Below, piece after piece: positions 5,819 to 47,111 of a stretch of 64,000 nucleotides of DNA. Within the stretch, counting starts at the first letter, position 1; every line of letters begins with the position of its first letter. The DNA lies in contig JAXGZN010000002.1 in assembly GCA_040776945.1 (NCBI GenBank), forward strand, positions 832,001 to 896,000, written 5' to 3'. Below the pieces are notes generated by a model. That model did not search any database and was not told the origin of the DNA. It was given only the letters and a program-made list of their open reading frames with translations. The stretch is from Methanomassiliicoccaceae archaeon (GTDB lineage: Archaea; Thermoplasmatota; Thermoplasmata; Methanomassiliicoccales; Methanomassiliicoccaceae). The position numbers and the translations under genes were made by a program.

Positions 5819-6139
5819 TCACAGAAGGACCAGGTTCACTACGAAGGACGCGACGAGGCCCGGAAGCGACAGGACTATGCCGAGAAATGCCAGCGTGTTC
5901 CCCTCGCTCTTCTTGGACAGGGACACGGCTCCGAGGATGACACCCGCCGGGGTGAAGATTGTGGGCAGCACAATGAAGCTGGCCATGCCCAGCACCACCG
6001 AGCCTATGGCCCAGTTCCTCTCCGGAGCGCGAACGGATGATGGTTGAGGATGGTAGTAAGCGGGCGGGCAGGGTGAGGGCACCGGAAACCTATTGCCGCA
6101 CCTCGGGCAGAAGCTGCCGATCGGGACCACCTCCCGCAT
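5819..6139 (-). CDS. small membrane protein with zinc ribbon (DUF4190-like)
   Basis: CPRCG knuckle, Pro-rich linker, then AIGSVVLG...GVILG...LGIVLS transmembrane helices. Confidence 0.6.
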   Translation of the reverse strand: MREVVPIGSFCPRCGNRFPVPSPCPPAYYHPQPSSVRAPERNWAIGSVVLGMASFIVLPTIFTPAGVILGAVSLSKKSEGNTLAFLGIVLSLPGLVASFVVNLVLL

Positions 6140-6294
6140 GTCGAGAAGAATATGACCAGAAATCAATGTCGGGCTATTTAATATCATTATGGTATTACTA
6201 TTATAATTATTTATGATTATGTCCTGTTCTCAACCCTGATGTTAAGGGCCTCGATCGTGCGATAAGTGTAGGAGACCGGGCATTAAGAAATGAG

Positions 6295-6397
6295 TGGGGC
6301 CGGGACCGAGATTTGAACTCGGGTGTACGGATATCCGCCAATGGCCTGCTGCCATGGTAGGCTGCAGTCCGCCACATGGCCGCTCTGTCATCCCGGC
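6295..6397 (-). tRNA. tRNA-Cys(GCA) with 29-nt intron at 37/38 (6333..6361), CCA encoded
   Basis: Acceptor GCCGGGA/TCCCGGC, anticodon arm GCGGA-CTGCAG^A-TCCGT, T-arm CCGAG-TTCAAAT-CTCGG. BHB motif: CTGC/GCGG helix with AG^C and AT^A bulges. Confidence 0.93.
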
Positions 6398-6612
6398 GTC
6401 TGGGGTAGAATTGGCTACCCATATATTAGAATATCGTACCCACGTTGAACTGGATAAGCGGGATGATTGGTTTCTTTTCCTCCTCGAGCTAAAACGAAAC
6501 CAGTCCCCCACTGGTCGATATGCTAGTGCTTGTTCAAATTACATAAATCTTGATAGAAACAAAAAGAAACGATTTCTGTTGATCGCCTTCTATAATCAAT
6601 GGACCCTAGGTT

Positions 6613-8223
6613 CTATTTCGAAAATTGTTCACATGACCTGCACACACTTTTTTTCTTCATGAATGCTCCCCTAGTTGTAGAGCAGATGGAACATGTCACC
6701 CTAGTGCAGACCGAACATATTGTTCTATGTTTCTCGCAAATAAGCCTGCCGCAGATCTGACATGGATTTGAACAGGTGTGGCAAATAAGTTGGTTGCAAA
6801 TATTGCATGCAACGGACAGGTGCTCATTACAGTATCTCTGGCCACAAGAAGAACATTGCACATTGTGATTGTCACATAACCACTTTCCGCACATGGAGCA
6901 CTGAACGATGTGCTTATCGCATAACGCATCTCCACAAACGTCACAGACAGCACTGGTGGTCTTTCTCTGGATCTTGACCAGACTCTTCAGTAAATGGTTT
7001 GGACAGACAGTAATGGTATCTTCAAGCATTGTTCCGCTTCCCGCTAGCATCCTTCGAGCATGAATTCTGCCAGATGAGCTGAAACCAAGTTCCCATAAAG
7101 GCACAAATATGGGTCTAGTGTCGTTTAGAACGATTTCGTCATTTCTAGGTACATAGACCTTAGAGGTCATATGGCCGTTCTTAGTAGTGTATCTGAATTC
7201 TTGCGTATTGTGTCTAGTGATCTCAAGTAGGGCTCGCCTTTTTGCTTCCTTCCTATCGATCATTGGAACGATTTTGACCAATTCATAATTGGCCCCGCCA
7301 CTAGAAAAATAGCTATTCGAGATCCCTAATGCTAACTCTCTTGATATTGCTACATCTTCCGCTAATTCTCCGGTGAATGCTTGTTTTATTTTTCCTAATC
7401 CGGATGATAAGCTTGCGTCGATTATCGCCCCATCCTCTCTTTGCAAGAATATTTCATCGGGATCTATACCATTTATGACACAGAAGCCAACGTCATTGAT
7501 CCTTTTTACAGAACCATCAGGCAATCTAAAGTCAGCTCTCAAACGATAGCTTATTCGATAATATGGCTTCCAGACCAGTCTTGCGCTTTCAATCATTACC
7601 TTTTCTGAGTTTCTAAGGTTAAGCTTGGTCGCTTCCTCAAAGCTCACTTGTTGGGGCACCGCGTGCATGAACCTTTCTTGATGGTTGGGAGAACGACCGC
7701 TTCTCAGTTCCAGTATGCGCATAGCCAGATCGTCCTTCTCCCAAATTGTTATGCCATTGGCTTCTGCTACTTCTTTTGCGTCATGTGTTATTCTTGAATA
7801 AACGACAAAAAGCCCGTTCTTTATGCCAGTCGCTTTCAATGCATTGCAGAAGTAGTACACCTTTTCCCTGCCAACAGCATTTAAGTAGTACTTGCACTCA
7901 ACCGCTTTCTGAAGTTGTGTACCATCTCTACTCTTTGTTGTAAGTATATCTATCTCCCAATACTGACCATCGGTTCCGAGGAGTCTAACGTTCCTTTGGG
8001 TCGAGTAGCCCTCAGAAGCAAGGATCTCTTCTATTAGCACTTCGAACTTGTTCCCTAGGTCCTTTCTAGAAAGAGAGGTGCTCAGGCGTTCCTCTGGATG
8101 TTGTTCCTTTTCCTCTTCGTTATTGAGCACGTATGAACTGTTGTATTTGCACTCCCCTGAAATTATTTGATTGCCACAGCCTGTGCAGAACTTTGCTGAT
8201 AGATCTGCAACGGATGGCCACAT
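6613..8223 (-). CDS. Mrr-like PD-(D/E)xK restriction endonuclease with N-terminal zinc ribbon and C-terminal Cys/His zinc-finger array
   Basis: GNKFE..IEEIL...GY, EIDIL, VECK, ANGITIW; tandem CxxC...CxxH units at the C-terminus; AT-rich DNA. Confidence 0.8.
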   Translation of the reverse strand: MWPSVADLSAKFCTGCGNQIISGECKYNSSYVLNNEEEKEQHPEERLSTSLSRKDLGNKFEVLIEEILASEGYSTQRNVRLLGTDGQYWEIDILTTKSRDGTQLQKAVECKYYLNAVGREKVYYFCNALKATGIKNGLFVVYSRITHDAKEVAEANGITIWEKDDLAMRILELRSGRSPNHQERFMHAVPQQVSFEEATKLNLRNSEKVMIESARLVWKPYYRISYRLRADFRLPDGSVKRINDVGFCVINGIDPDEIFLQREDGAIIDASLSSGLGKIKQAFTGELAEDVAISRELALGISNSYFSSGGANYELVKIVPMIDRKEAKRRALLEITRHNTQEFRYTTKNGHMTSKVYVPRNDEIVLNDTRPIFVPLWELGFSSSGRIHARRMLAGSGTMLEDTITVCPNHLLKSLVKIQRKTTSAVCDVCGDALCDKHIVQCSMCGKWLCDNHNVQCSSCGQRYCNEHLSVACNICNQLICHTCSNPCQICGRLICEKHRTICSVCTRVTCSICSTTRGAFMKKKSVCRSCEQFSK

Positions 8224-33770: not shown

Positions 33771-33846
33771 GCGGGCGTAGTGTAGTTGGTTATCACTTGA
33801 CCTTGCCAAGGTTAGAACACGGGTTCGAATCCCGTCGCCCGCACCA
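33771..33846 (+). tRNA. tRNA-Gly(GCC), CCA encoded
   Basis: Acceptor GCGGGCG/CGCCCGC, anticodon arm TGACC-TTGCCAA-GGTTA, T-arm ACGGG-TTCGAAT-CCCGT. Confidence 0.96.
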
Positions 33847-34186
33847 CCAACCATATCCAGGTGGGTCCATTTTTTTCAATCAGGGGCGGATTGGAACCTG
33901 GCTGCGTCTGGCTCGGTTTTCGGGGTATTATCGCCACCGTCCAAACACGCTGTGCTTCTGCGATCCTCTGCTCGTTCTTCTTGCGCGCGTTGTAAGTCTC
34001 GGTCGTCTTGCTCGTGGCGTGCCCCATCATCTTCGATGTCGAGTCTAGCGGCACCCCTTGGTCGAGGCGGTTCTGACCGAAGGTCCGGCGGCAGACCCGG
34101 AGGTCGAAGTCGACCCCGACCTCTTCCTTGACGATGGACTGGAGGTCCGTCGTCCCGTTGATCGAGAACTGCCCGCTATGCCGATT
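33812..34186 (-). pseudogene. C-terminal remnant of a tyrosine recombinase/integrase
   Basis: Manual translation: VGVDFDLRVCRRTFG..GVPLDSTSKMMGHATSKTTETY (box II-like, GH, catalytic Tyr). N-terminal part absent; abuts the tRNA 3' end. Confidence 0.8.
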
Positions 34187-35047
34187 CTAGCCATCTAAAT
34201 TCTTTAAAAACTGATTGACCAGTACATAGCTTTCAGCTTGTGTCCTCCTCTTCTGTTCCTCATCAGCACTATAAAGAAAATTGCCAACCCACGAAGGTCC
34301 TTCAGCCTCAATTGAACGGAACTTTTGCATAATATTTCCTATACCTATTCTCATACTTGGTTCAGCTAGGAATGGTCGGACAATTTGACTTACATCACTC
34401 GGGCTTTCCAAACATTGAGAGATTACCGTAAAAATATCGTAAGCGTCCTTCTCTTTATACCGCTCACCCAGAACTACACCCTTCATACCAATGCAGCCCG
34501 CGATATCAAGCATCTGTATCTGAGCGCTAGATTCACCATCGCCAGGAAGGGTTCCTTGAATCTCTTTTCTAAAGTTGTGCTGAAATGCGATGTCACATCC
34601 ATTTGCAATTCTCGCTGGAAGCGAAGGTTGAACCTTCCTATGTCTGTGATTATGCAATTCTTCTGTCCCACATGTGAGAAAATCAATAGAAATCAGATAT
34701 TCCCGTCCATCGGACCTGGAAGTAATTCCTCTCTCAAAACTGAATAAGATGGGTTGCCCATCCATCCCATGTCGCATCGAATAACCACGTTCCTGAATCA
34801 GGTCGATGATTGTGGCGTACTCATCGTTCCTTACTAATTCAGGGTTAACCGCAATGTCAATATCAATTGATCCAACATGAGGGAACCCCCCTCTGCCGAA
34901 TTCCTCTATCAGGAAAAACGGTGCCCAGCCTCCAACAAGCACTAGCGCATCCCTATAGGAGTATAATGTCAGAGATAACTCCAGGAGCGCAGATAAGGAT
35001 GCATCAGTTATGCCTCCACCATAGTCTGTAGATAACCTAGGTGGCAC
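34187..35047 (-). CDS. nucleotidyltransferase (AbiEii/type IV TA toxin-like)
   Basis: LVGGWA, HVGSIDIDI, IDFL, K...ERYKEKDAYDI. Confidence 0.8.
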   Translation of the reverse strand: MPPRLSTDYGGGITDASLSALLELSLTLYSYRDALVLVGGWAPFFLIEEFGRGGFPHVGSIDIDIAVNPELVRNDEYATIIDLIQERGYSMRHGMDGQPILFSFERGITSRSDGREYLISIDFLTCGTEELHNHRHRKVQPSLPARIANGCDIAFQHNFRKEIQGTLPGDGESSAQIQMLDIAGCIGMKGVVLGERYKEKDAYDIFTVISQCLESPSDVSQIVRPFLAEPSMRIGIGNIMQKFRSIEAEGPSWVGNFLYSADEEQKRRTQAESYVLVNQFLKNLDG

Positions 35048-35049
35048 TT

Positions 35050-36066
35050 CTAAACCCCCAAGATCTTTTCTCGGATGGCATCGGCCTGCTCCCTACCCCT
35101 TTGTGGGTAATTGAAAAGGTCCAGATAAAGTTGAAGATTGGACACAACTTTTACACCATCAATTGTTTGTGTGTTTCTTAATATTCCATCATCTCTGGGA
35201 GTTATCAAGTAGACGTTACCCCCGAACTCTACTGGCTCCAATTCAAGGGCGTTCTTCAATGCGTCATTTTTGTTAACATAAATGTATGTGTCCGTTGACC
35301 TAACCACAGGGAGGACCAGTCGAGCTGCAGCCCCTAGAGTGATCGCATAATCGCAATCAGGGAGTTGCCTCAGTTTTGGAAATATTTCATCGTAGCCCTT
35401 AAAAGGGGAGTAGTATCCAGTGATTTTTTGATCGTTATACCTATAGCTACTGACCAATAGATCTAGCAAGCCTGAAGGGTCGGAAAGCTTGATCGCTCCT
35501 CTCCTTTTATCAACATAATTATATGTCTCCAGGCCATCCAGAACCTTATAAACCTGAGCGAGACTAACTGATGAACTATCTGAAAGCTCCTGCATCGTCC
35601 ATTCCTTTTTCGGATCATTTAACATGCACCTTATTACCCAGTTACTTTTTGTAGATAACAAGTTTTTTTGCTTTCTCTCAATTTTATGTTTGTTATCATT
35701 TCCCCAGAGGTTGATAAAAATACTATCGAATTTTAAATAGGCATTTCCAGAAAGATCAATGCATCCAATATTGGATCTCTCACAAAATTCCTTCCCGCGC
35801 TCACTAATAAAGGGAGCGACCAGGATGGGGTAGAAATTGTCTGTAGACCTATTGCTCAATCTGCCGACATATTCCGCAATAACTCTGGGCTCTCCAGATG
35901 ATTTGAACTCAAGATATAGGGTTTTTTTCTTTTTTCCTATCCTCAAGTTGGCTACTGAGTCTGCATAGTCATCTCTTTCGAGTTTAACTTTATCGCTAAC
36001 CCACTCTAATTTTCCTACCTGAGACAACAACTTTTCAACAGTTTTCTTATACTCGATTTCTTCCAT
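35050..36066 (-). CDS. AbiEi-like type IV TA antitoxin/transcriptional regulator
   Basis: VAPFIS..IDLSGNAY N-domain, wHTH, C-terminal VSNLQLYLDL..PQRGREQA; 2 nt upstream of the nucleotidyltransferase. Confidence 0.8.
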   Translation of the reverse strand: MEEIEYKKTVEKLLSQVGKLEWVSDKVKLERDDYADSVANLRIGKKKKTLYLEFKSSGEPRVIAEYVGRLSNRSTDNFYPILVAPFISERGKEFCERSNIGCIDLSGNAYLKFDSIFINLWGNDNKHKIERKQKNLLSTKSNWVIRCMLNDPKKEWTMQELSDSSSVSLAQVYKVLDGLETYNYVDKRRGAIKLSDPSGLLDLLVSSYRYNDQKITGYYSPFKGYDEIFPKLRQLPDCDYAITLGAAARLVLPVVRSTDTYIYVNKNDALKNALELEPVEFGGNVYLITPRDDGILRNTQTIDGVKVVSNLQLYLDLFNYPQRGREQADAIREKILGV

Positions 36067-36242
36067 ATTTTTCACTTATATTGCTATTTTCACCAATTGG
36101 TAAAAAATCGTATAGGTTATAAAGTATATCAATTATAGCAATCGAAATTACTGCTACAAACACTACTTCTCCACGATATGCATGAAATGAGGAAAGGTGG
36201 TGAGCTAATTGCACCTTAGAGTTAGAGAAAAGTGAAGACGAT

Positions 36243-36857
36243 CTAGATGAGTGGGTTCGAACGCACAATCCTTTGAATGTCTGAAGCAAATTCAACCATG
36301 TCGCCAAAGTCAAGCAGCATGAACCCATCTTGGCACGATATCGCTTCCATTTTTTGTTCTGATTGCTCAAGGTCCGCCCGAGTGTACCTCTTAGATAGGA
36401 CTACAATTTTTTTATAAATGCCCTTATCGCGTTTCCAGACCTCTTCATTGAACGGACCGGAAATGATTGCATCTATGATATTGAGCAATCCTATGATTGA
36501 TCGGTTCCGCGATCTTCTGATAGCTTCCCATGAGTACCCAGAGAACACAATTATTGAGATTTCGCGCTTATGGAGTCTCTCGCACATGTGAAGGAGCGCT
36601 TCAGCCTGCTGGAACGGCTCACCGCCGGAGATTGTGACCCCTTCACATTGGGTCCTCTGACACAACTCGACCAGTTTATCTGCGAACATTGTATGCTCCA
36701 TGAGGTGCCTAGGCTCGTGAGGTTGGTAAGCCGGGTTCGCACAGCCTGTGCATCCAAGGGTGCAACCCTGAACCCAAACCACGACCCTCCTCCCCGGCCC
36801 ATTGATTGTGCTACCAGCCGCAAGGGCCGCCACATTGAGCAATGGTTCCAGTGCCAT
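36243..36857 (-). CDS. short radical SAM protein (NrdG/activase-like)
   Basis: NGPGRR.VVWVQGCTLGCTGC, GVTISGGEPFQQ, FSGY. Confidence 0.87.
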   Translation of the reverse strand: MALEPLLNVAALAAGSTINGPGRRVVVWVQGCTLGCTGCANPAYQPHEPRHLMEHTMFADKLVELCQRTQCEGVTISGGEPFQQAEALLHMCERLHKREISIIVFSGYSWEAIRRSRNRSIIGLLNIIDAIISGPFNEEVWKRDKGIYKKIVVLSKRYTRADLEQSEQKMEAISCQDGFMLLDFGDMVEFASDIQRIVRSNPLI

Positions 36858-36858
36858 C

Positions 36859-38715
36859 TCACTCCTCTAAGAGTTCGAAGACTATGCCTTTCCCATCCTC
36901 AACGCAGCTGGCCCTGATGCTTCGTCCCTTCATCAAGAACTGCTTGTTCTCGAATATGTATCTGGCCAGGGGGTCGATAAGGTCCCTCTCCGCCGCATTA
37001 AGCAACCCACGCCCACCGTGGGAGATGTCGGCCCTCTTCTCCAAGTAATCATACAGCCTTTGGTCGAGCACTAGTCTTACATCATACTTGGATTGGATCG
37101 TCTCCTGTAGGGGGGCCAGCTTCTTTTTGATAATTTCCCGCCTAAACTCCTCACTGTTGACGGGATTGAAGACGATGATGTTCTCCCCTATTCGGTTGAG
37201 GAGCTCAGGACGCCTTAGTTCCTTGTTGAAATGGTCCTTTACCTTGTGACGGAACTCTTTCTCCAGGTCGCAACCTTCCACCTCAATGCCAACCTCAGAG
37301 GCTCCGATATTGCTGGTGAATATGATGATCGTTTCGGAGAAGTAGGCGGTCACGCCCTTCCCATCGGTGAGCCTCCCATCCTCAAGGATCTGCAGGAACT
37401 TATCAAGGATTCGCGGATGGGCCTTCTCTATCTCGTCGAAGAGAAGCACGCTGAACGGTCTTTCCAGGACGGCGTTGATCAATTGCCCGCCTTCCTCAAA
37501 CCCAACATAGCCGGGCGGTGGGCCGATCAGACGCTGGTCGGATTCCTCATGACTGTACTCGCTCATGTCGAAGCGTATGCATGCGTTCTCATCTCCGAAC
37601 AAGAATTCCGCAGTGGCCTTGGCGAGCTCGGTCTTACCCACTCCGGTCGGACCGACGAAGAACAGGGCGCCTTTTGGCTTTGACATCTTCGAGGAGTGCT
37701 GTATTCCCGATAGGCCCATGGCTGCCTTGATGATGGTGTTGACCACGTGTTCGACGGCCTTGTCCTGTCCGACCACCCGCTTTTTCAGGGAAAGATCTGC
37801 GTTGCGTAGCTTCTCCTGAGAAAGCTCTTCCCAGGGCGACCTCTTCTCGCCAAAACGGTAGAGGTTAAGCAGTCTCTCCGGAGTAAGACCTCGGTTGTCC
37901 CGCGCCAGCCTGACCATCTGGATCAGATCTACGGTTTTCATCCCTTCAGTCATATCGGCCAGTTCATCCATCGCTTGGTCTCTTGTCTTGTCTTGAGTGG
38001 CCTTTAGGTTCAGGTCTTCTAGATGACGCTCAAAGAACCCTATCCTGGTCTTCTTCTCCGGGACTCCCAGGTTGAACAATTTGATCCTAGGGTCTGGCTG
38101 ATAGAACGAGGGCGGAATAGATGCTAGATTGGCTGTTATTAACATGATCGTAGCCGGAGGGGTGTCGGTCACGTTCCCTTGTCGGCCGAGACCCTCGCGC
38201 CCGCACATGAGCATCGATAACCGCTCCAACAAACAGCGGTCCTCTTGGGCCAGGGGCCTCTGTACCGCACCGAACTGGTAGTCGGTCCAATCCACTATTA
38301 TAGCCACGGCCTGATCATAATAGGGGAGGGCTTGTTCAAGGGCTCCGACCAGATCGCCGATTTCCTTGAGCGATGGGAGGTCATCGTCCAGGCCTTGAGG
38401 TTCACCCGCATCGTACTTTTCGCCCTCCACATCTTGTGTCAAGCTCCCTCTCCACCAAGTGTTGAACCTCCGTCTTTCATCATCGGACCGGAATTTTAGG
38501 CCGACAATGGGGTTCCAGACGCCCACCACAGAAAAGCCACTATCGTGTAAGGTCCTGTCGAGGTAGTGAGCCAGGAGCACATACCTAGTACCCTCGTCCG
38601 TTTTAATTGTGAACTCATCGCGAGTGTTTCCGTAGACAACAATCCCCTTCCTGAACCTGGCCTCCCTTGCCAAGTTCTCAAATTGCCGCTCCATTTTAGA
38701 AACGTCTCCTGCCAT
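36859..38715 (-). CDS. ClpA/B-like AAA+ ATPase (one intact D2-type domain, degenerate N-terminal domain)
   Basis: VVGQDKA, FVGPTGVGKTELAK, DMSEY, GPPPGYVG, LFDEIEKAH, GRLTD, RPELLNR. Confidence 0.88.
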   Translation of the reverse strand: MAGDVSKMERQFENLAREARFRKGIVVYGNTRDEFTIKTDEGTRYVLLAHYLDRTLHDSGFSVVGVWNPIVGLKFRSDDERRRFNTWWRGSLTQDVEGEKYDAGEPQGLDDDLPSLKEIGDLVGALEQALPYYDQAVAIIVDWTDYQFGAVQRPLAQEDRCLLERLSMLMCGREGLGRQGNVTDTPPATIMLITANLASIPPSFYQPDPRIKLFNLGVPEKKTRIGFFERHLEDLNLKATQDKTRDQAMDELADMTEGMKTVDLIQMVRLARDNRGLTPERLLNLYRFGEKRSPWEELSQEKLRNADLSLKKRVVGQDKAVEHVVNTIIKAAMGLSGIQHSSKMSKPKGALFFVGPTGVGKTELAKATAEFLFGDENACIRFDMSEYSHEESDQRLIGPPPGYVGFEEGGQLINAVLERPFSVLLFDEIEKAHPRILDKFLQILEDGRLTDGKGVTAYFSETIIIFTSNIGASEVGIEVEGCDLEKEFRHKVKDHFNKELRRPELLNRIGENIIVFNPVNSEEFRREIIKKKLAPLQETIQSKYDVRLVLDQRLYDYLEKRADISHGGRGLLNAAERDLIDPLARYIFENKQFLMKGRSIRASCVEDGKGIVFELLEE

Positions 38716-38718
38716 TGG

Positions 38719-39588
38719 TCATCGCCTCGCTTCTCTTACCTGCGCTGCGCCATGCGGCAGGTCCTTTGCTCCCTTCTTTATCTTGTAAGGATTGTGCCAG
38801 TTGAACTGCTCGATCTCCCCATCGGTGCCATCTGATCTGAGCCGCTCTAACACTGCATCCACAGCGTCCTTGCATGTTTCACCGATGAATCCATCTAAAT
38901 CGAAACCAATCCTGCACTGGTCGTTTATCTCGAACCTTACCTTCTTGCCGGCAGGCGTGGTCGCGAGGATTTCCACACGTCCATCCTTTAAAACCGGTCC
39001 GGAGATCACATAGTTGGAGGCGCGAAGGCCACCCAGCAATCGGCGGACAAGTTCCTTTCGGACCTCTTCCTGCAGGTCTCTCGCCTGAGACTCTCTTGCG
39101 CCGTTCAGGGTCTCCTCCACCATCGACTCAAGAGTGACCAACGACAATGGGACGTCCGTCATTTTTTCTAGCCGAGCGATATTACTTTGATGCGCCTTCT
39201 GGCCTTCCTTATTCTTGATGGAAATGGATTTTAGTTGGTTGATGGTCCTGGAAAGGAGCTCGTCCACTTTCCTTCGCTCCTCGCCCCACATTTGCTTCTT
39301 CGCCCTCGCCTCGGTCTGGATTGCGCTCACCTGAGCGATAGCGAGACGGGCGCTCTGTAGCGCTTGGTCTGGAGACAGAGACATCTGACTATACGCTTCA
39401 CCAACCAGCTTATCCAGCTCTGATGACTCACTAACAAAACCAGACGTGGAGAGGTTTTGCTTCCCTTGTTCCAAAAGTGCTGCCGTCCGTTCCAGTAAGG
39501 CCTGACACTCTTCCCTTACCTGGGACCTCCGAGCCTCTTCGCGCATCCTCTCCATTTGCTTTACGCTGATGTATCCCCCACCGCTCAT
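38719..39588 (-). CDS. coiled-coil hypothetical protein, C-terminus DUF2997-like
   Basis: Helical N-terminal two thirds; FDLDGFIGETC motif. Confidence 0.7.
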   Translation of the reverse strand: MSGGGYISVKQMERMREEARRSQVREECQALLERTAALLEQGKQNLSTSGFVSESSELDKLVGEAYSQMSLSPDQALQSARLAIAQVSAIQTEARAKKQMWGEERRKVDELLSRTINQLKSISIKNKEGQKAHQSNIARLEKMTDVPLSLVTLESMVEETLNGARESQARDLQEEVRKELVRRLLGGLRASNYVISGPVLKDGRVEILATTPAGKKVRFEINDQCRIGFDLDGFIGETCKDAVDAVLERLRSDGTDGEIEQFNWHNPYKIKKGAKDLPHGAAQVREARR

Positions 39589-42320
39589 GTTCTTCCCCCA
39601 ATCTTGCTGAAATCGCCGAGTTGAGGAATGATGACCTCGCCATCGACAATTGAGTACTTTATCAACCGAGAGGCCACCTTTGTCGCCATATCGGGGTGCT
39701 CCCTGAAATGGTCGCGATAAAGGTCGTTAGATAAAATATACATATTCTTGTCCAAGGCCATCTGGATCACGTGATGATCATCGTTCTGCCCGGACGGTGC
39801 CTGTATCAGATACTTTTTTCTTTCGTTAGAGAAGTACCTCTTCAGAGCTTCGAATTTCTTCTTGCCGGCTTTATCTTTAGTCAGGGTACTCTGAATGCTC
39901 GAACCGATGACGATGAAAACTTCATCACAGGAGTATTTGCCCAATAGCGCTTCGAAGGTCCTTATGACGTTTTCCACGCTAACAGAGCCATCATTCTCAT
40001 TGTAGCGGGCAATGTTGCTGCCGTCCACGACCACTCGAATCCCTGAGACTGGATTCTTGTTGGCATCCATCTTATTTGCCACGATTTTGTCCCAGACGCC
40101 GAGCGTGCGGAGATTTTTCTCGAATCGCTTTGGCTCCCGGACCGAAGTATCGAAGACGGAAACAATGTCGCTATCGGTTATCTTTACCCTCTCAGTAAGC
40201 GCGCTACGCCTGGCCGAGATGATGAAGGATAGCCAGAGTTCGACGTCTCGATCATCTTTCGGACTTAACGAGCGCGAAAGCTGAGTAAGGTGATTGCTTA
40301 GAATTGCGTCAGGCATCATCCCGGCTCTGTTGAGCTCCTCCAGGTTGTTCATCATGGTGGACAATTGCCGCTCGTTTAGTGGTTTGGGCAGCTCCCGTGG
40401 GGGCGACACCAGTGAACTTAGATCGATCTGAACTCCCATTCCGGTCAAGGCCTCATGAATCGAGCGTACCACGACCCTGGTTTCAGGATCTAGTATATCT
40501 AAGGGCTCCTCGAAAATGCGCTTGATTATGTTTGTAAGAGAGAGCTTATCGACCTCTGCTCCGAGCCTGTGCATCTGCACGCAGAGTTTCAGCGCTTCCT
40601 GGGCTTCCTTTCCACTAACTTCGACCTCGCTGATGACCTCACAAGCCTTGGAGGCAAGGAGCATCCTCTGATCGGGTGATTGTATCTTGGAAAGTTGTTC
40701 GACCACTTTTGGTCCCCACTTGATGTTGTCCCTAGAGGTCAAACCTAGAATGGATCCAGCTCTCAAAGAGACGATCAGCTGAACGTATCTATCCCATAAG
40801 GGAGATGAGGCGAAGATAGCACCCCTCTTCTCCAGCACCTCCACCTGCGCGGCCATTCGAGCATCGAACTTGGATTGCTCCTTCGGACGCTTCATCTCTA
40901 TGGAGGACAGGTACAGGTTTGAGTTACCCTTCACTACGCGTTCGGGCAAGGCAATCAATGAATCCCAATTGGCCATGTTCATGTAGCGTTCCCAAATGGC
41001 CAGCTCAGCTTTGGACATCTCTGCTGCGCCTCTAGATGGTTCCATCTTTATGAGGAGCCGTATGATGTCATCAAACTCGTCGTTCGACGGAGCAGAGGCA
41101 CTGATGGCCTCTAGGCACCTCGGCAGATTACTCTCGGAAGGATTGATTACCAACAGAGCTTGGGCCAAACCTTTGTTCATCGGAAGGCGAGACATGCTCA
41201 TGGCGATCTCTTTCTTTATGCTATCCGCTGCCTCTATCCCCTGCTCAGCAAAGACGGGGACGCCGAGACCCTCATCCTGCAGGCTCAGTGCACTAATCAC
41301 TTGTTTATCAGTGGCTAGGATAACTCTACCAGGTTGCTGTAGGTCCAGATGAATTATCTGCACATCATTCCTAGTCACTCCCTTGTCGCCTTCTGGAGTC
41401 TTCGACGGTACGAACACAGTCTTGGGCAATAAGGAAGGATGTTGCATCAGTATGCTCCAAGCCTCTCCGAACAGGGCGCACCATTGAGCGCCCCTTAGGT
41501 AATCGCCCAGGTTGACATTTCCGGCATGCTGGAGCTGACAATCGTCGGGTAGCTCACTGGAATAGGTTTGTCTCCATGATAGGCGTGGTTCAGCATCCCT
41601 CCTCAACGACAGGATGGCTTGTTGAAGCGCCCCATTCTCCCTTGCCACCTTTAGGACAGACTTATCAAGAGTGCTCCGATGATCATCACCCACTGGTGTG
41701 TCGCTGCTGCGGAAGATTACTTTACCTGGGATTAGTAGGATATCCCCTATGACCTGAAGTTTTATCTGAGCACAGGCGGTGGTCGCATTGCTGTAAACCT
41801 GCTCTCCTTTTTCCAGTATCTTGCAATTCTTCAGATGGTTGTAGATTATCCCAAGGGGCGGTTCCTCAACACCCGCGACCCATTCTTCCCCAATATCTCT
41901 ATTGTTTTTGAATATCCTTGAGCCGGCATACCACTCCTTGGTTCCCGGATCAAACAGTATGCTATCCTCCACAATCCTTGGATCACCTAGTATGCGACCT
42001 TTCTCGAACATCCCCCGTCCCTTATCAGTGACCCGATAGAATCCAGGTGTGGTGCGCTGGAGGGCACCAATATCCTCAAGTTGCTTGGCCGCCTCCATCA
42101 GGAATGTCTCATCACCAACTCCAAGTCTCGTAGCTATCTCGCTCACCGACGGAGATGGCTTGATTTTGACCAGCGGAGCCAGGATTGCCCATTCCAACAG
42201 ATTGACCTTTCGGTCTCTCCTGAGGTCAGCCTTGAAGTAAGCCTGAATAACGGGATGTTCGAATTTGGCACCCGCAATTATGGTAAAAGGAGTCCAAGCC
42301 ACACGCTTAGGCTTATCCAA
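39585..42320 (-). CDS. large protein: N-terminal wHTH, C-terminal Regnase/Zc3h12a-type PIN (NYN) ribonuclease
   Basis: SVSEIATRLG..YRVTDKG wHTH; VVVDGSNIA, NDDHHVI, ILSNDLYRD. Confidence 0.82.
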   Translation of the reverse strand: MDKPKRVAWTPFTIIAGAKFEHPVIQAYFKADLRRDRKVNLLEWAILAPLVKIKPSPSVSEIATRLGVGDETFLMEAAKQLEDIGALQRTTPGFYRVTDKGRGMFEKGRILGDPRIVEDSILFDPGTKEWYAGSRIFKNNRDIGEEWVAGVEEPPLGIIYNHLKNCKILEKGEQVYSNATTACAQIKLQVIGDILLIPGKVIFRSSDTPVGDDHRSTLDKSVLKVARENGALQQAILSLRRDAEPRLSWRQTYSSELPDDCQLQHAGNVNLGDYLRGAQWCALFGEAWSILMQHPSLLPKTVFVPSKTPEGDKGVTRNDVQIIHLDLQQPGRVILATDKQVISALSLQDEGLGVPVFAEQGIEAADSIKKEIAMSMSRLPMNKGLAQALLVINPSESNLPRCLEAISASAPSNDEFDDIIRLLIKMEPSRGAAEMSKAELAIWERYMNMANWDSLIALPERVVKGNSNLYLSSIEMKRPKEQSKFDARMAAQVEVLEKRGAIFASSPLWDRYVQLIVSLRAGSILGLTSRDNIKWGPKVVEQLSKIQSPDQRMLLASKACEVISEVEVSGKEAQEALKLCVQMHRLGAEVDKLSLTNIIKRIFEEPLDILDPETRVVVRSIHEALTGMGVQIDLSSLVSPPRELPKPLNERQLSTMMNNLEELNRAGMMPDAILSNHLTQLSRSLSPKDDRDVELWLSFIISARRSALTERVKITDSDIVSVFDTSVREPKRFEKNLRTLGVWDKIVANKMDANKNPVSGIRVVVDGSNIARYNENDGSVSVENVIRTFEALLGKYSCDEVFIVIGSSIQSTLTKDKAGKKKFEALKRYFSNERKKYLIQAPSGQNDDHHVIQMALDKNMYILSNDLYRDHFREHPDMATKVASRLIKYSIVDGEVIIPQLGDFSKIGGRT

Positions 42321-45300
42321 GCTCCTCCCCCCTTACATAGCCATAGCCGCTCTCCCGCCGCTCGGCCATACCTATAATATCGCGGTAAGAGTAACGGTCC
42401 TCAGTCTGTCCATCGCAGCATATTTTAACCTTCACTTCTTCGAACGATTCCCTTGAGCCTACCACAAAGAGCAGCGTTCGGGCTCGAGAGATGGCGACAT
42501 TGATTCTCCGAAAATCTTTGACGAATTGCGTCACCCTTCCATTGGGGGGCGAGGAGACCAGGCTCGCGATTATGATGTCTCGTTCCATGCCCTGGAATCT
42601 GTCTACCGTCCCTACTCTCAGATCGAACCCCTGGAGCTTCTTCTCTTGCTTCAGTCGATTTACGAGGTCCCACAGCCTTCTCTCTTGGCCGGCGTAGAAG
42701 GAGATTATTCCTACTCCGATCGTTTTGTCCGTCGGTAATGAGGTCTTCTGGGCGCCCAATTGTCTCAATATGCGGCCAATCAGCTCTACCTCATAATCGT
42801 TGTATCTTGAACGGAAGCGGCCCTCTTCCTTGCCCTCAAAGTTACGGACGGGTTTACCGCCTATCATCCTATAGGACGATTCGACCCAAACTAGGTGGGC
42901 GTTCTTGGAAGCCAGTTCACCATGCTCGTTACGCAGAGAGAACTCGTTCTTGCGCTCGTTGTCAGGGTCTTTCAAACCCATTGTGAGCTTGTAACCGCTT
43001 GGATAAAACTGATTGATGGCGCCCATGATGGCTGTGTGCATCCTATACTGCTTTGTCAAGCGAGCCTTCAGTACATCCTCGGCTTGAGTGAACATTTCTT
43101 CAAAATATGATGTTGTCACCAGCTTCTCGTAACGCTTGAGCTTCTGATAAATCTCCTCGCTGCTCACGCTCTCATCGAAGGTCATTTCTTCTTCAGTGAG
43201 ACGGAACGAAGGCGGCAACTGGTGGTGGTCACCAACCAGTATGATCTGCTTGCCAACCAGCATAGGCATGAGCAGTTCTGGTGGGGTTGCTTTTGAGACC
43301 TCGTCGATGATCACCAGATCGAATTCTTTCTGGGAACCCCAGAACTTGTACTTTCCAGTCTCTGAACAGGTGGCCCCGACAATGTTGGATTGAGCCAGGT
43401 AGACTTTCCTGAGGCTTTCTCGGTCAATGTCATCGGTGGCTCCCAGCCTCTCCTTCCACTCCTTCTGGACCTCGTGCCATTCTTCCGAAAGCCCTGCTCC
43501 TTCCTTGAGCGTTTCAAGAGCGTGCCTGAGTCGCTGATGCCATGACAGGTCCCGATAGGAATCGTGGGGATGGGCGAGCTCGGTCTGCTCCTTTAGATGC
43601 TGTTCATATACTGCGGTTATCGACAGCAAGTGGGCAGCACGCTCCTTCTTCCAACCTTCCACCCTCTTTGCCAGTTCGCCTTCCTCGACCTCTGATATCA
43701 CAAGCACTTCTGAGGCGCGTTCCTTTTCCTTCAAGGCGCTTTCGAGCTCCTTTCTATCGGAATCCGCAATCGTTTCAAAACCGCCCTTAAGGCCAGTCAG
43801 ATGATTGCGCTGGGAGGGCGAGATAGTGAGGTCGAAAGTTTGTAGTTGTGTCAGAAGTGCTTTTAACTCTGCAAGGGCCGGCTCCAACTTGCGGTTCGGA
43901 CCGAGAGAGGATCGTAGTTCAGCTAAACGATGTTCTGATTCCTCTCCCCCCTGCAGATGATAGAGGTCGATGCAATCAATAAGAATTGGGTCAAGCGAGC
44001 GGAGATGATTGCGCCAGGCGTCGTTCACGGTACGATCATCTGCCCCCTTAAGGTCCAATAATTTCCGATTTATCTCACCCAGCTCTTTCTGTGCTGTTGA
44101 TACCTGGACACAGTTCTGATCGATCGCGTCTGCAATCAAATTTACGAGCACACGCTTCCTAGCATCTAGATCCTTTGCTTCCGCGGATTTGGTCTCGGCT
44201 AACGGAATGAGGGATGATAATGCCTGTACCTTGTCGATTGCAGTCGTAGCATGCTCCTTCAGCTCCATGTTCTTGACCAGGATGACTGGTAGCACATCCT
44301 TCACCCAAGTGGAGTCATCAGCATGCTTCCTGCCCAGCAAGCCAGAGCATAACGATTCTAGCAATCGCGGCTCCAACTCAGCCAGTCTTTGAATATCGCT
44401 GATACGTTGGGGGAGCCTGCCTTCTCTCACTAACCGGGATAGAAGTTCGACATTTCGCTCATCCAGTGCTACCTTTTCCTGAATTTTCAGTACCCTGTCC
44501 GATATGCTTTTCAAGTTTGATTTCTGTGCTTCGATTGCTTGGCTTGACACCTTTTGAGCCTGCACCATCCCCTTTTCCACTGGCAAGTTCTTTTCGATCC
44601 AATATGAGGCGACCTCAGCCGCTTTTATCTGGCGAATCAACTGACCTTGTGTCTCCACCGTCATAGTTAATGAGGATCTGACCCCAGTGAGCCAGTGCTG
44701 AACCACATTGGCTTCGACGAATGGCTCCCCGTCCTCAGTGATGTTTCTTTTAGGGCCAAGCCGGATTGGCCTCATGTTCACGGCGAACTCCTTCCTCCCC
44801 CCCATTAGCCTGCTGAGGGCGTTGTCGACGGCAAGGTTGGTTTGGGATGCAATGAGCACCCTGCCTCCCCTCTGGGTCACCTGATTGCAGAGTTCGGCGA
44901 TGACAGTGGTTTTTCCAGTCCCTGGAGGCCCCTGTATAAGGCAGAGATCGGGGGTGTTGATCGCTTTTTTGAGGGCCTCCATCTGGCCTTCGTTCAACCT
45001 ATCTTCAATGAGCGTCGATTTCTGAATGCCTTCGTCCCGCGTTGGTAGCCTTGCCTGCCCCACGTCGAATATGAAGTCCTCGAGGTGAGGGTTTGCCGAT
45101 TTTCCCTCCTTCAATCGATTTATGGCTTTTTGTTGAAGGGCTAGGGGCAGTTCGTCCAGGGCTACCGAATTAACCAGTAAGCCTGTAGCGGGCAACGCCA
45201 ATAGTTGGTCATCTCTCTTCTGCTCTTTGTCCTCCATCTCATCTAGCGCGAAGATAGGGTCAAGGTCGACTCGGATTATTGACTGGACATTATCACCATT

Positions 45301-46107
45301 CTTTGACTTGGAGGGAGGACGAGCTTTCTGTCCTGCCGCAATCTTACCCAAACGAATGGGCTCCCCGTCTTCCTCCGACCAGATCCAATTTCTACTTTCG
45401 GGGATGGCGTGGTCGAGGACGTAGACCTCGTCCTCACAACGGAACGCCTTATGGGAGTTTTCCGATCTGTTCTTCACCGATAACTCGATTTCCGCCGTGA
45501 CCGGTCCGGTCCTCACTAGATTTCCGTAAGCTATCCAAGCCCGCCGTCTTTGAACTACATCGAGGCTTTCATCGAGATATGCTTCCCAACTCTCGAGGCG
45601 CCTCTGAAGTTCATCTCGCCTCGGGGGAAGGGCGGTCAGGAAATCGATGTCAGAGGAGAACATGAATGAGTTATCTTCACCAGATTCAGACTCGAGGACC
45701 AGGACAGTGCATGTTATCAAGCCCTCCTTATCTGTGCTCGGCCTCTTTGACACGATGGAATAATACGCCTTTATTATGGTTAGACGACCGTTCGTTCTCA
45801 CACATTCGAAAACCAGGTCGTCCTCCATTCTCATGAAAGCCGAGTGGAGACTGCTCATCGGATCTAGACGGAATCGTAGTCGGCAGAACTTTTCATTCTT
45901 CTTCTCCCCCACGAAGATGTTTTCGACAAGGAAACGAGTTGAGGCGCCGTTAAGGGAGCGAAGTTTCTCCACTATCTCCTTTCCATCTTTTTGATCGACC
46001 TTTATCTTTTCTAGGTCCAATAACAGGACCAACCTTCTGGTCAATTCTCTCTGCCTGATCCCTTGATAATCTTGAGCTACATCTCCAAAGTCGATGATCG
46101 ACGCCAA
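42313..46107 (-). CDS. SF1B helicase, Upf1/DNA2/NAM7-like, with long helical insertion
   Basis: QGPPGTGKT, SQTNLAVDN, DEVSK, VGDHHQLPP, QYRMH, TVDRFQG, RINVAISRA. Confidence 0.92.
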   Translation of the reverse strand: MASIIDFGDVAQDYQGIRQRELTRRLVLLLDLEKIKVDQKDGKEIVEKLRSLNGASTRFLVENIFVGEKKNEKFCRLRFRLDPMSSLHSAFMRMEDDLVFECVRTNGRLTIIKAYYSIVSKRPSTDKEGLITCTVLVLESESGEDNSFMFSSDIDFLTALPPRRDELQRRLESWEAYLDESLDVVQRRRAWIAYGNLVRTGPVTAEIELSVKNRSENSHKAFRCEDEVYVLDHAIPESRNWIWSEEDGEPIRLGKIAAGQKARPPSKSKNGDNVQSIIRVDLDPIFALDEMEDKEQKRDDQLLALPATGLLVNSVALDELPLALQQKAINRLKEGKSANPHLEDFIFDVGQARLPTRDEGIQKSTLIEDRLNEGQMEALKKAINTPDLCLIQGPPGTGKTTVIAELCNQVTQRGGRVLIASQTNLAVDNALSRLMGGRKEFAVNMRPIRLGPKRNITEDGEPFVEANVVQHWLTGVRSSLTMTVETQGQLIRQIKAAEVASYWIEKNLPVEKGMVQAQKVSSQAIEAQKSNLKSISDRVLKIQEKVALDERNVELLSRLVREGRLPQRISDIQRLAELEPRLLESLCSGLLGRKHADDSTWVKDVLPVILVKNMELKEHATTAIDKVQALSSLIPLAETKSAEAKDLDARKRVLVNLIADAIDQNCVQVSTAQKELGEINRKLLDLKGADDRTVNDAWRNHLRSLDPILIDCIDLYHLQGGEESEHRLAELRSSLGPNRKLEPALAELKALLTQLQTFDLTISPSQRNHLTGLKGGFETIADSDRKELESALKEKERASEVLVISEVEEGELAKRVEGWKKERAAHLLSITAVYEQHLKEQTELAHPHDSYRDLSWHQRLRHALETLKEGAGLSEEWHEVQKEWKERLGATDDIDRESLRKVYLAQSNIVGATCSETGKYKFWGSQKEFDLVIIDEVSKATPPELLMPMLVGKQIILVGDHHQLPPSFRLTEEEMTFDESVSSEEIYQKLKRYEKLVTTSYFEEMFTQAEDVLKARLTKQYRMHTAIMGAINQFYPSGYKLTMGLKDPDNERKNEFSLRNEHGELASKNAHLVWVESSYRMIGGKPVRNFEGKEEGRFRSRYNDYEVELIGRILRQLGAQKTSLPTDKTIGVGIISFYAGQERRLWDLVNRLKQEKKLQGFDLRVGTVDRFQGMERDIIIASLVSSPPNGRVTQFVKDFRRINVAISRARTLLFVVGSRESFEEVKVKICCDGQTEDRYSYRDIIGMAERRESGYGYVRGEELG

Positions 46108-46529
46108 TTAATCCCCAATGAGGATAATTATACGACTATTAAAATAACTAAGCGACTCGTGTTTAAATTTAGGATTCTGAAGCATTGGTGGCACCAACGT
46201 CGATTCGCCTAGATGTGGTTATTAAGTTCCTAAATTATCGGTCTTGTTGCAAAAGTCATCTGACGAATTCTGAAGCCTATTTATCATTTATTATCCATAT
46301 CTCTATCAAAATATAATAGTGTGGTCCAACCTATTGCCAGTTGTTCAGAAAGACGATAGGTTGGTGACCACGATGACAGCAATTACGAGCGAAGTATTCA
46401 CCTATGTGATAAGTGCTCCCCGCGAAATAGTCGCGCGTTCATGCCAACCAACAGGGCCACGCTGATCGAATGTCATGAGCGCGATATGCCTCTCGCCCCC
46501 AAGCCCGTTCTTTTTGCAACGGCAACCCT

Positions 46530-47050
46530 TTAGCTATCCCTCGACCGATCGCTCCTGGGGAAGAGCGCCTGCGGGATCATCGACAGCATGTACGGATGCC
46601 TCAGCACGTACGACGGGCGGAGATAGAACGATACGTAGGCCTTGGCCAGCTTCCTCACCACCGCCTTGCGCCCGATGCCCATGCGGTCGCAGTCGATGAC
46701 CGGTTCCACGGCCGTGAAGCGGCTATAGTCCTCTGTCGACAGTGGATCATCGGCTCTCAGCTCGTCGAATATCAGCGTCCCCGGGAAGGGGCCAATGGAG
46801 GTGTCCTCGATCATTTCCGGCCCATGATCACGCCCGATGGGGAGACGGCAGCCGATCACGATGCTCGTTCGGCCAGCCATCGCCGACATGGCGAAAGGCA
46901 AGCGGCGGCGAACATCGCTCCGCTCAAAAGAGATATGCTACTTGCCGACCATATAGTGCCTGGCGTCAACGATCTGGTGCCTGACCGGGCGCAAGATCTT
47001 GTTCGAGCCGATGCAGCGGAACGGTCGTTAAGCATGACCGTTGTGGAAGC
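46530..47050 (-). pseudogene. decayed B12-binding-type radical SAM gene fragment
   Basis: PFPGT and AYVSFYLRP C-terminal motifs; upstream frame degenerate with an internal stop and no intact CxxxCxxC. Confidence 0.5.
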
Positions 47051-47111
47051 CGCGCCTTCCGATCGGAGATAGACGGTCCCGGACCTTCGATGGTCCTGAG
47101 GGTGATAGAGC

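Follow-up and report, generated by a model that had tools for sequence, protein, structure and literature searches.

A horizontally mobile five-gene cassette of an archaeon, combining a Mokosh-like helicase and RNase pair with a coiled-coil, Clp-type AAA+ and radical SAM trio, as a candidate RNA-targeting conflict system

A compact run of five genes, here called g1–g5, is located in the genome of a Methanomassiliicoccaceae archaeon, whose assembly comprises 2.17 Mb in two contigs; its archaeal nature is supported by the small-subunit rRNA, for which the archaeal model reaches 1503 bits and prevails in the clan competition. All coordinates are positions within a 64,000-nucleotide (nt) stretch of contig JAXGZN010000002.1, which is referred to as the window. 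A preliminary description of this DNA had proposed that five co-oriented genes, joined by gaps or overlaps of −8, −4, +3 and +1 nt, form an undescribed defence system made of a Upf1-like helicase, an RNase with winged helix-turn-helix (wHTH) and PIN domains, a coiled-coil protein, a ClpB-like ATPase and a radical S-adenosylmethionine (SAM) protein. The genes and their products, with lengths in amino acids (aa), are as follows:

g1, 42313–46107, minus strand, 1264 aa: Upf1-like helicase of superfamily 1B (SF1B), MkoA-like
g2, 39585–42320, minus strand, 911 aa: wHTH domain, fast-evolving middle region and C-terminal NYN RNase domain
g3, 38719–39588, minus strand, 289 aa: coiled-coil protein of no known family
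g4, 36859–38715, minus strand, 618 aa: two-module AAA+ protein with a C-terminal half of the ClpB/ClpC D2 type
g5, 36243–36857, minus strand, 204 aa: radical SAM protein of the glycyl-radical-activase type (NrdG/PflA-like)

From g1 to g5, neighbouring genes overlap by 8 nt and 4 nt at the first two junctions and are separated by 3 nt and 1 nt at the last two, exactly as had been described, and all five open reading frames (ORFs) are intact. The five products, together with those of two neighbouring genes, were scanned against Pfam, PADLOC-DB v2 and NCBIfam r20.

The same five genes recur in distant genomes. With g2 as the anchor, 12 loci were found in genome and metagenome contigs, and eight of them (L005, L006, L008–L011, L013 and L014) show the complete five-gene order. 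These eight originate from a Methanobacteriota metagenome-assembled genome (MAG), a Spirochaetaceae MAG and six metagenome contigs. A Methanocorpusculum MAG (L004, 7489–16124) contains all five genes as a decayed copy with broken frames, in which the helicase, gene 2 and the AAA+ gene are split over several frames and g5 is intact. In the remaining three loci, contig ends interrupt the cassette, and g1 followed by g2 is visible. A search of 72,556 plasmids with g3 and the N-domain of g4 as anchors led to 11 records carrying cassette genes, seven of them conjugative. The full order is present in five of the six plasmids examined, which belong to Acinetobacter, Photobacterium, Moellerella, Polaromonas and Leisingera; the sixth, from Geminocystis, contains the trio g3–g5 only. 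In RefSeq, the products of the plasmid genes are labelled, from g1 to g5, AAA domain-containing, PIN domain-containing, hypothetical, AAA family ATPase and 4Fe-4S single cluster domain-containing proteins. The g4 profile recovered eight contigs from IMG/VR, of which six show the full order, one is incomplete and one has the trio only. The g3 profile matched six of the 401 genomes of the phylum sample, this one included, with the full order in all three that were examined. The order is identical in all five-gene loci, with the genes abutting or overlapping. Because it is the same in all related loci with enough sequence, the arrangement goes far beyond chance, and conservation of the five genes as a unit across phyla and in both prokaryotic domains is supported.

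Among relatives whose gene 2 carries an NYN domain (the NYN clade), identity to the proteins of the window is 60–63% for g4, 38–44% for g5, 36–38% for g1, 30–34% for g3 and 22–31% for g2, where it is lowest in the middle region. The distribution is patchy. No match to the g2 query was found in 10 genomes of the same genus, and of 40 relatives searched with g2, 38 gave no match and two matched in the NYN domain only. Neither g3 nor the N-domain of g4 has a match in 50,697 deposited phage records, and the Moellerella g4 gene has no DNA match in E. coli genomes.

The product of g1 matches the Pfam families AAA_11 (2.5e-44) and AAA_12 (2.6e-35), the two parts being separated by a long helical insert. 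It also matches the PADLOC models of MkoA (PDLC03920, 3e-109, residues 164–1250; PDLC03921, 6.5e-92), and its matches in the PDB are DNA2, IGHMBP2 and UPF1. The assignment as a Upf1-like helicase therefore holds. At the N-terminus, a likeness to a 1B domain (Atlas score 0.87) is regarded as a lead only. No kinase domain is present among the 21 Pfam families matched at E ≤ 0.01.

The second gene encodes a MarR-like wHTH domain at its N-terminus (approximately residues 36–109; VIA Z 10.4, rmsd 2.0 over 69 aligned residues; Foldseek probability 1.00) and a Zc3h12a-type NYN domain at its C-terminus (PF11977, residues 762–899, 7.4e-13, 48.9 bits versus a cut-off of 23). The wHTH and RNase parts of the preliminary assignment thus stand, with the correction that the nuclease of g2 is an NYN domain of family PF11977 and not a Pfam PIN domain; PIN versions of gene 2 do occur in proteobacterial relatives. 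The NYN domain matches the structures of ZC3H12B, ZC3H12C and ZC3H12A in the PDB. In 13 sequences, residues D766, N769, D847, D848 and D866 show full or at least 90% conservation, and the domain is predicted to be an RNase with conserved acidic active-site residues. A word-indexed protein search with g2 returned three near-identical clusters only; an exhaustive phmmer search of 1.84 billion representatives gave 90 matches, roughly twelve of which resemble g2 in length. One protein, P0042 (1530 aa), is a Upf1-like helicase fused to a C-terminal NYN domain in a single chain. A C-terminal NYN domain is likewise seen in P0046, P0069, L002 and G025:C17, the lengths across the group being 1530–1615 aa. 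Homology between g2 and the gene 2 of other clades was looked for with hmmsearch, and profiles A5 and A1 had no match among 14 proteins.

The position of gene 2 in the cassette is constant and its catalytic domain varies. Besides the NYN domain, a PIN_4 domain is present in five proteobacterial plasmid loci (E between 1e-19 and 3e-6), and two archaeal relatives as well as a low-GC clade give weak DUF4145/HepT-like (HEPN-like) matches. In a maximum-likelihood tree of 23 g4 proteins the starred clades coincide with the effector types of gene 2, and archaea are intermixed with a spirochaete in the NYN clade. It follows that the cassette evolves as a unit and passes between domains of life.

No match to g3 was found in Pfam, PADLOC-DB v2 or NCBIfam r20. 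Its AlphaFold2 model (mean confidence, pLDDT, 80.5) consists of long helices (residues 3–190), in agreement with the coiled-coil protein expected as the third gene, and of a five-strand sheet domain (194–253). The tail (254–289) is disordered (pLDDT below 50), yet it contains the best-conserved block of the protein, with the pattern W264-H-N-P-x-K-I-x-K-G-x-K-x-x-P278. The C-terminal domain is homologous to that of the plasmid versions (hhalign probability 98.8%). A Foldseek search against the PDB gave no match at E ≤ 0.001. The C-terminal domain of T4 MotA was considered as a candidate fold and set aside as a lead only, its VIA Z of 8.4–8.6 lying inside the noise band of the tool; the other VIA matches are generic helical ones.

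The ClpB-like character of g4 is confirmed for its D2 module and D2-small domain. The C-terminal half matches AAA_2 (9e-50) and ClpB_D2-small (4.3e-5) in Pfam and the D2 of ClpC/ClpB in the PDB (1.8e-71), and the Walker A motif GPTGVGKT, the Walker B motif LLFDEIEK and the pore loop GxPPGYVGF are invariant. The match to the ClpB model TIGR03346 reaches 276.9 bits versus a cut-off of 1232.1 and covers residues 299–601, i.e. the D2 part, only. The N-terminal half (residues 1–290) has a classic AAA outline and is degenerate, with GN..D in place of Walker A and without the P-loop lysine; it matches VAT weakly (E 0.009). The protein is not a ClpB equivalog with two active AAA modules, an N-domain and an M-domain.

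The product of g5 is a radical SAM protein, as had been supposed. It matches Fer4_12 (1.5e-28) and Radical_SAM (1.3e-7), and the motifs C32xxxC36xxC39, NGPGxR and GGEP are invariant in eight sequences. It is closest to NrdG (TIGR02491, 83.2 bits, under the cut-off of 126.1), and its profile aligns to the pyruvate formate-lyase (PFL)-activating enzyme across the NGPGxR, CxxxCxxC and GGEP motifs. Thus it has the features of an activase, namely the CxxxCxxC cluster site, the SAM-binding GGE and the N-terminal GxGxR signature. It does not match the PADLOC model of pVip. No glycyl-radical enzyme was detected among the five proteins of the operon by the Pfam scan or by a motif regular expression. 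The 'VRGY'-like block at the C-terminus of g1 was rejected as a glycyl-radical site, as it is not kept across clades. A complex prediction for the N-terminal half of g4, the C-terminal part of g3 and g5 gave a score of 0.00; it was run without controls and counts neither way.

The cassette was compared with the known systems that share parts with it. Mokosh consists of a COG1112 helicase and a phospholipase D (PLD) nuclease, with a kinase domain in addition in type I; type I comprises MkoA and MkoB, and type II the fused MkoC (Millman 2022 preprint). The product of g1 is a COG1112/Upf1-like helicase that matches MkoA, and a partner gene bearing a nuclease follows it. The fused helicase–NYN protein parallels the fused type II. 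In a single plasmid relative, the N-terminal part of gene 2 is similar to that of MkoB (E 1.1e-5), which hints at an adaptor domain shared by the plasmid gene 2 and MkoB. In contrast to Mokosh, the nuclease of the cassette has an NYN, PIN or HEPN-like RNase fold and not a PLD fold, g1 lacks a serine-threonine kinase domain, g2 matches no PLD family, and the cassette has three more genes that look obligatory.

Dodola, which includes a ClpB-domain protein, has been validated as an anti-phage system (PMC11514479). The product of g4 shares the ClpB-type AAA core with DolB (4.7e-22, residues 290–471 only) and matches PDC-M37B of the PADLOC system PDC-M37 (2.6e-32, residues 350–472 only). It differs from both by a D2-small domain and by a degenerate AAA domain of its own at the N-terminus, and no match to the partners DolA and M37A was found among the seven proteins scanned with PADLOC. 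CoCoNuT systems of types II and III are described as having the Upf1-like CnuH helicase, coiled-coil elements, a predicted RNA target and a McrBC partner; radical SAM, ClpB and NYN are unmentioned in the text of that paper (PMC11090510). What the two share is a Upf1-like helicase with a coiled coil, an AAA+ partner and RNA as the predicted target. The AAA+ protein of the cassette, however, is of the Clp/Hsp100 type, and no family of the McrB GTPase (CnuB) or McrC (CnuC) was found among the seven proteins in Pfam, PADLOC or NCBIfam. Radical SAM enzymes have been reported in defence (PMC13128918; 10.1101/2025.09.30.679545), for example in viperins, HXS and Ophion. The partners of g5 differ from those in HXS and Ophion. 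With NrdG and PflA, g5 shares the N-terminal signature of activases and the alignment to the PFL-activating enzyme; it differs in falling below the NrdG cut-off and in that no glycyl-radical partner or motif was found.

The eukaryotic helicase UPF1 works functionally with Regnase-1 (ZC3H12A) or with SMG6-type PIN nucleases. The likeness of g1 to UPF1 and of the g2 NYN domain to the structures of ZC3H12A, ZC3H12B and ZC3H12C resembles this pairing at the domain level only; the cassette consists of separate prokaryotic operon proteins accompanied by an unfoldase and a radical SAM enzyme.

No named system in PADLOC-DB v2 or NCBIfam r20 covers the cassette, in line with the preliminary description. 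In PADLOC-DB v2, g2 and g3 match nothing, and g1 and g4 match MkoA and DolB/PDC-M37B, respectively, only in part. Of the NCBIfam r20 models, none covers g2 or g3, and none of the five proteins has an anti-phage equivalog there. A literature search, which did not extend to supplementary candidate lists and subscription papers, found no published description of the five-gene set.

In the window, the cassette lies within a region of lower GC content, surrounded by the following features:

46108–46500: presumed promoter region (inferred), AT-rich and non-coding, upstream of g1, read from the sequence
34187–36075, minus strand: two-gene neighbour, 341 aa (35050–36075) and 286 aa (34187–35047)
33812–34186, minus strand: putative integrase remnant, a 124-aa stop-to-stop frame with a likeness, judged by eye, to the C-terminus of tyrosine recombinases
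33771–33846, plus strand: tRNA-Gly(GCC) at the left edge of the island (ARAGORN; Rfam tRNA, 65.7 bits)

The GC content is 0.44–0.52 across 34001–46000 and 0.57–0.64 on both flanks, which, together with the tRNA gene, bears out the compositionally foreign island beside a tRNA. The integrase remnant stays putative, as a reading by eye, and no direct repeat of at least 14 nt involving the tRNA end was found as an attachment (att) site. The GC minimum of the island, 0.444, falls on the two-gene neighbour. Its 341-aa product matches AbiEi_2 below the threshold (E 8e-4, 20.2 bits, cut-off 21) and a TrmB-type wHTH (5e-4); for the 286-aa product there is no family match in the Pfam, PADLOC and NCBIfam scans. 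The AbiE-like pair of the preliminary description is thus retained as a weak likeness of one member. The 286-aa protein shows a GS...DxD-like motif, seen by eye, that is suggestive of a nucleotidyltransferase. The two genes may constitute a separate toxin-antitoxin or abortive infection (Abi) pair. Right of the island, the AcnX-like gene does not adjoin the valyl-tRNA synthetase (ValRS) gene in five genomes of the same genus; given this lack of synteny, the variable region may reach beyond the island on that side. Several overlapping ORFs without family matches occupy 46530–47100, between the island and a methyltransferase gene.

The carriers of the cassette include plasmids, virus-like contigs and the tRNA-linked low-GC island described here. 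The following neighbours were found beside related cassettes:

L014: BREX genes BrxB/BrxC
L013: Wadjet genes JetA/B/C
L011: NERD-UvrD helicase and DUF4357
L010: transposase, NYN-LOTUS gene and N6-methylase
L016 (Acinetobacter plasmid pNDM1_010055): VakA/pVip-like pair
L018 (Moellerella): ArdA, PD-(D/E)XK nuclease and integrase
L019 (Polaromonas): transposases and Phd/YefM pair

Known defence systems are thus often found near the cassette, namely BREX, Wadjet, NERD-UvrD and the pVip-like pair, and the neighbour genes are suggestive of a defence context. On the Acinetobacter plasmid, a VakA/PDC-M51B-like ATPase gene, a pVip-like radical SAM gene and a small unknown gene follow directly after the cassette (L016:12361–14343); this group looks like a second candidate system containing a radical SAM protein.

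We consider it probable, at roughly 0.6, that the locus encodes a horizontally mobile RNA-targeting conflict system, most likely directed against viruses or plasmids, for which the resources searched hold no name. The first module, g1 and g2, resembles Mokosh in pairing a Upf1/MkoA-like 5′–3′ SF1B helicase with a protein whose RNase domain is exchangeable. The second module, the conserved trio of g3, g4 and g5, may prove to be new in kind. The RNA-directed effector that had been suggested for this locus is well founded on the swapping of RNase domains at a fixed position and on the Upf1-like helicase–NYN fusions, and the 1530-aa fusion supports the joint working of helicase and RNase; the RNase III-like genes that recur beside the cassette belong to the same line of evidence. 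The sequences themselves show the anatomy, the intact catalytic motifs, the conservation as a unit, the exchange of effectors, the mobility and the neighbours in defence islands, and we infer the defence function, the RNA target, the formation of a complex and the order of events.

We propose that the helicase encoded by g1 would load on foreign or aberrant RNA and hand it over to the g2 RNase or license its activity. The variable middle region of g2 may be a contested surface under arms-race pressure. The trio would act as a switch or as a second effector. In it, g3 could serve as a scaffold or adaptor and bind a partner through its conserved disordered tail, and the AAA+ ring of g4 might thread a polypeptide, which would be a protein of the invader or an inhibitory part of the system's own components. 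The radical SAM enzyme g5 would then abstract hydrogen from the protein target, rendering the step irreversible. Much more tentatively, as a possibility that is clearly less probable than the conflict function as such, the trio would represent a new immune or conflict module, in which an activase-like enzyme receives from a Clp-type unfoldase a polypeptide that is either a latch of the system or a protein of the invader, with protein-radical chemistry as an irreversible trigger or weapon; such a module could combine with various sensors and effectors, and phages would carry it too.

A number of observations weigh against the proposed conflict system or parts of it. None of the 13 gene 2 proteins of the NYN clade matches MkoB at E ≤ 1, and the g2 N-terminus is only weakly similar to the PIN-type gene 2 (hhalign probability 15%, E 0.0017). 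A handful of flanks was inspected by hand with Pfam or PADLOC, and around L005, L004 and L020 metabolic or plasmid-maintenance genes only were seen. The IMG/VR contigs are possibly prophages or misassigned host DNA. A conserved glycyl-radical motif of the RVxG[FWY] type was not found by a regular expression search of the five proteins in nine loci. G273 of g3 is invariant in the NYN clade, but the plasmid versions do not retain it, and it was discarded as a glycyl-radical site. Finally, the trio is present without helicase and RNase in two loci, the Geminocystis sp. NIES-3708 plasmid pGM01 (L021) and an IMG/VR contig (L029:2186–12626), where it immediately follows T4-like genes for the terminase large subunit and the portal. 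In that contig the trio seems to be borne by a phage without the other genes of the cassette. The occurrence of the trio without helicase and RNase implies that it need neither serve the host nor depend on the first module.

In both of these loci the coiled-coil protein is encoded immediately upstream of the AAA+ protein, and its C-terminal part resembles g3 (E 8e-5 and 0.002). The trio-only loci thus indicate that the conserved core is the trio, including the coiled-coil protein, and that the helicase–RNase pair is an attached module. On the Geminocystis plasmid the radical SAM gene comes first, followed by several unknown genes, and a HigB/antitoxin pair lies just before the AAA+ gene.

The trio-only loci also bear on two other explanations of the cassette. 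The cassette could serve a mobile element, as an addiction or abortive module, as a weapon in the competition of plasmids and phages or as a counter-defence device. Its carriage on conjugative plasmids and on IMG/VR contigs with an upstream CI-like helix-turn-helix gene, the adjacency of the trio to phage terminase and portal genes, and the ArdA antirestriction and integrase genes near the Moellerella cassette all fit this explanation. However, known defence systems commonly ride such elements, so that this context does not discriminate. Chromosomal copies, moreover, adjoin BREX and Wadjet, and g3 and the g4 N-domain are without match in the deposited phage records. Service to a mobile element is therefore regarded as unlikely, although it is the explanation to be taken most seriously beside the conflict system.

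Alternatively, two independent systems may lie next to each other, a Mokosh-like helicase–RNase pair (g1 and g2) and a separate trio (g3–g5). The trio stands alone in the Geminocystis plasmid and the viral contig, a helicase–NYN fusion protein exists, and helicase–nuclease pairs and fusions act alone in Mokosh (Millman 2022 preprint). Every five-gene locus, on the other hand, shows the same order with abutting or overlapping genes, and the g4 tree tracks the effector type of gene 2 with starred support. Furthermore, no g1–g2 locus without the trio was found among the g2-anchored loci where the sequence continued. Independence of the two parts is accordingly judged quite improbable, a little behind service to a mobile element. 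A housekeeping or stress module that combines RNA quality control and protein disaggregation with an activase for an anaerobic glycyl-radical enzyme and lies in the island by chance, as the housekeeping relatives Upf1, ClpB and NrdG of the domains could suggest, is very improbable in view of the patchy distribution (g3 in 6 of 401 phylum genomes, the g2 query unmatched in 10 same-genus genomes), the foreign composition and plasmid carriage, the wide margin by which every curated equivalog cut-off is missed, the operon without a glycyl-radical enzyme and the relatives in aerobes such as Acinetobacter and Polaromonas.

If the proposed conflict system does defend its host, a widespread system of archaea and bacteria would be added to the immune repertoire. 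It would join Upf1-type RNA surveillance with exchangeable RNases, corresponding in prokaryotes to UPF1 and its NYN or PIN nucleases, to Clp/Hsp100 unfoldases in immunity, as in Dodola, and to an activase-type radical SAM enzyme, themes not previously combined. Its modularity, with the trio alone or the trio plus a helicase and RNase with three effector types, offers natural experiments on the mechanism, and the plasmid versions of Polaromonas, Photobacterium and Moellerella are clonable bacterial homologues.

Between 27 and 67% of the sampled operon words are present in six sludge-type metatranscriptome runs, and in four of the six runs there are contigs that cover portions of each of the five genes with at least 99% identity. 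These findings are compatible with transcription of the operon, keeping in mind that RNA libraries can hold DNA and that the contigs are strandless. In the bin upstream of g1 (46068–46551), the depth of RNA contigs is 0, 0, 0.4 and 0, and contigs of two RNA runs end at 46060 and 46064. A transcript end near 46060 was considered and dropped, as a low-depth bin is no evidence when there is no DNA run for comparison.

Further genes accompany the cassette in some relatives. An RNase III-like gene, recognised with Pfam, adjoins it in two clades (L013:5149–5838 and L025:12349–12867), and ORFs of similar size occupy the corresponding position in L024 and L027. In the low-GC clade, a CI-like helix-turn-helix gene of approximately 175 aa is found just upstream of the helicase gene. 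In the window itself, a second patch of low GC content (6001–8000; 0.451 versus about 0.60 in its surroundings) lies far from the operon and is possibly another foreign insert.

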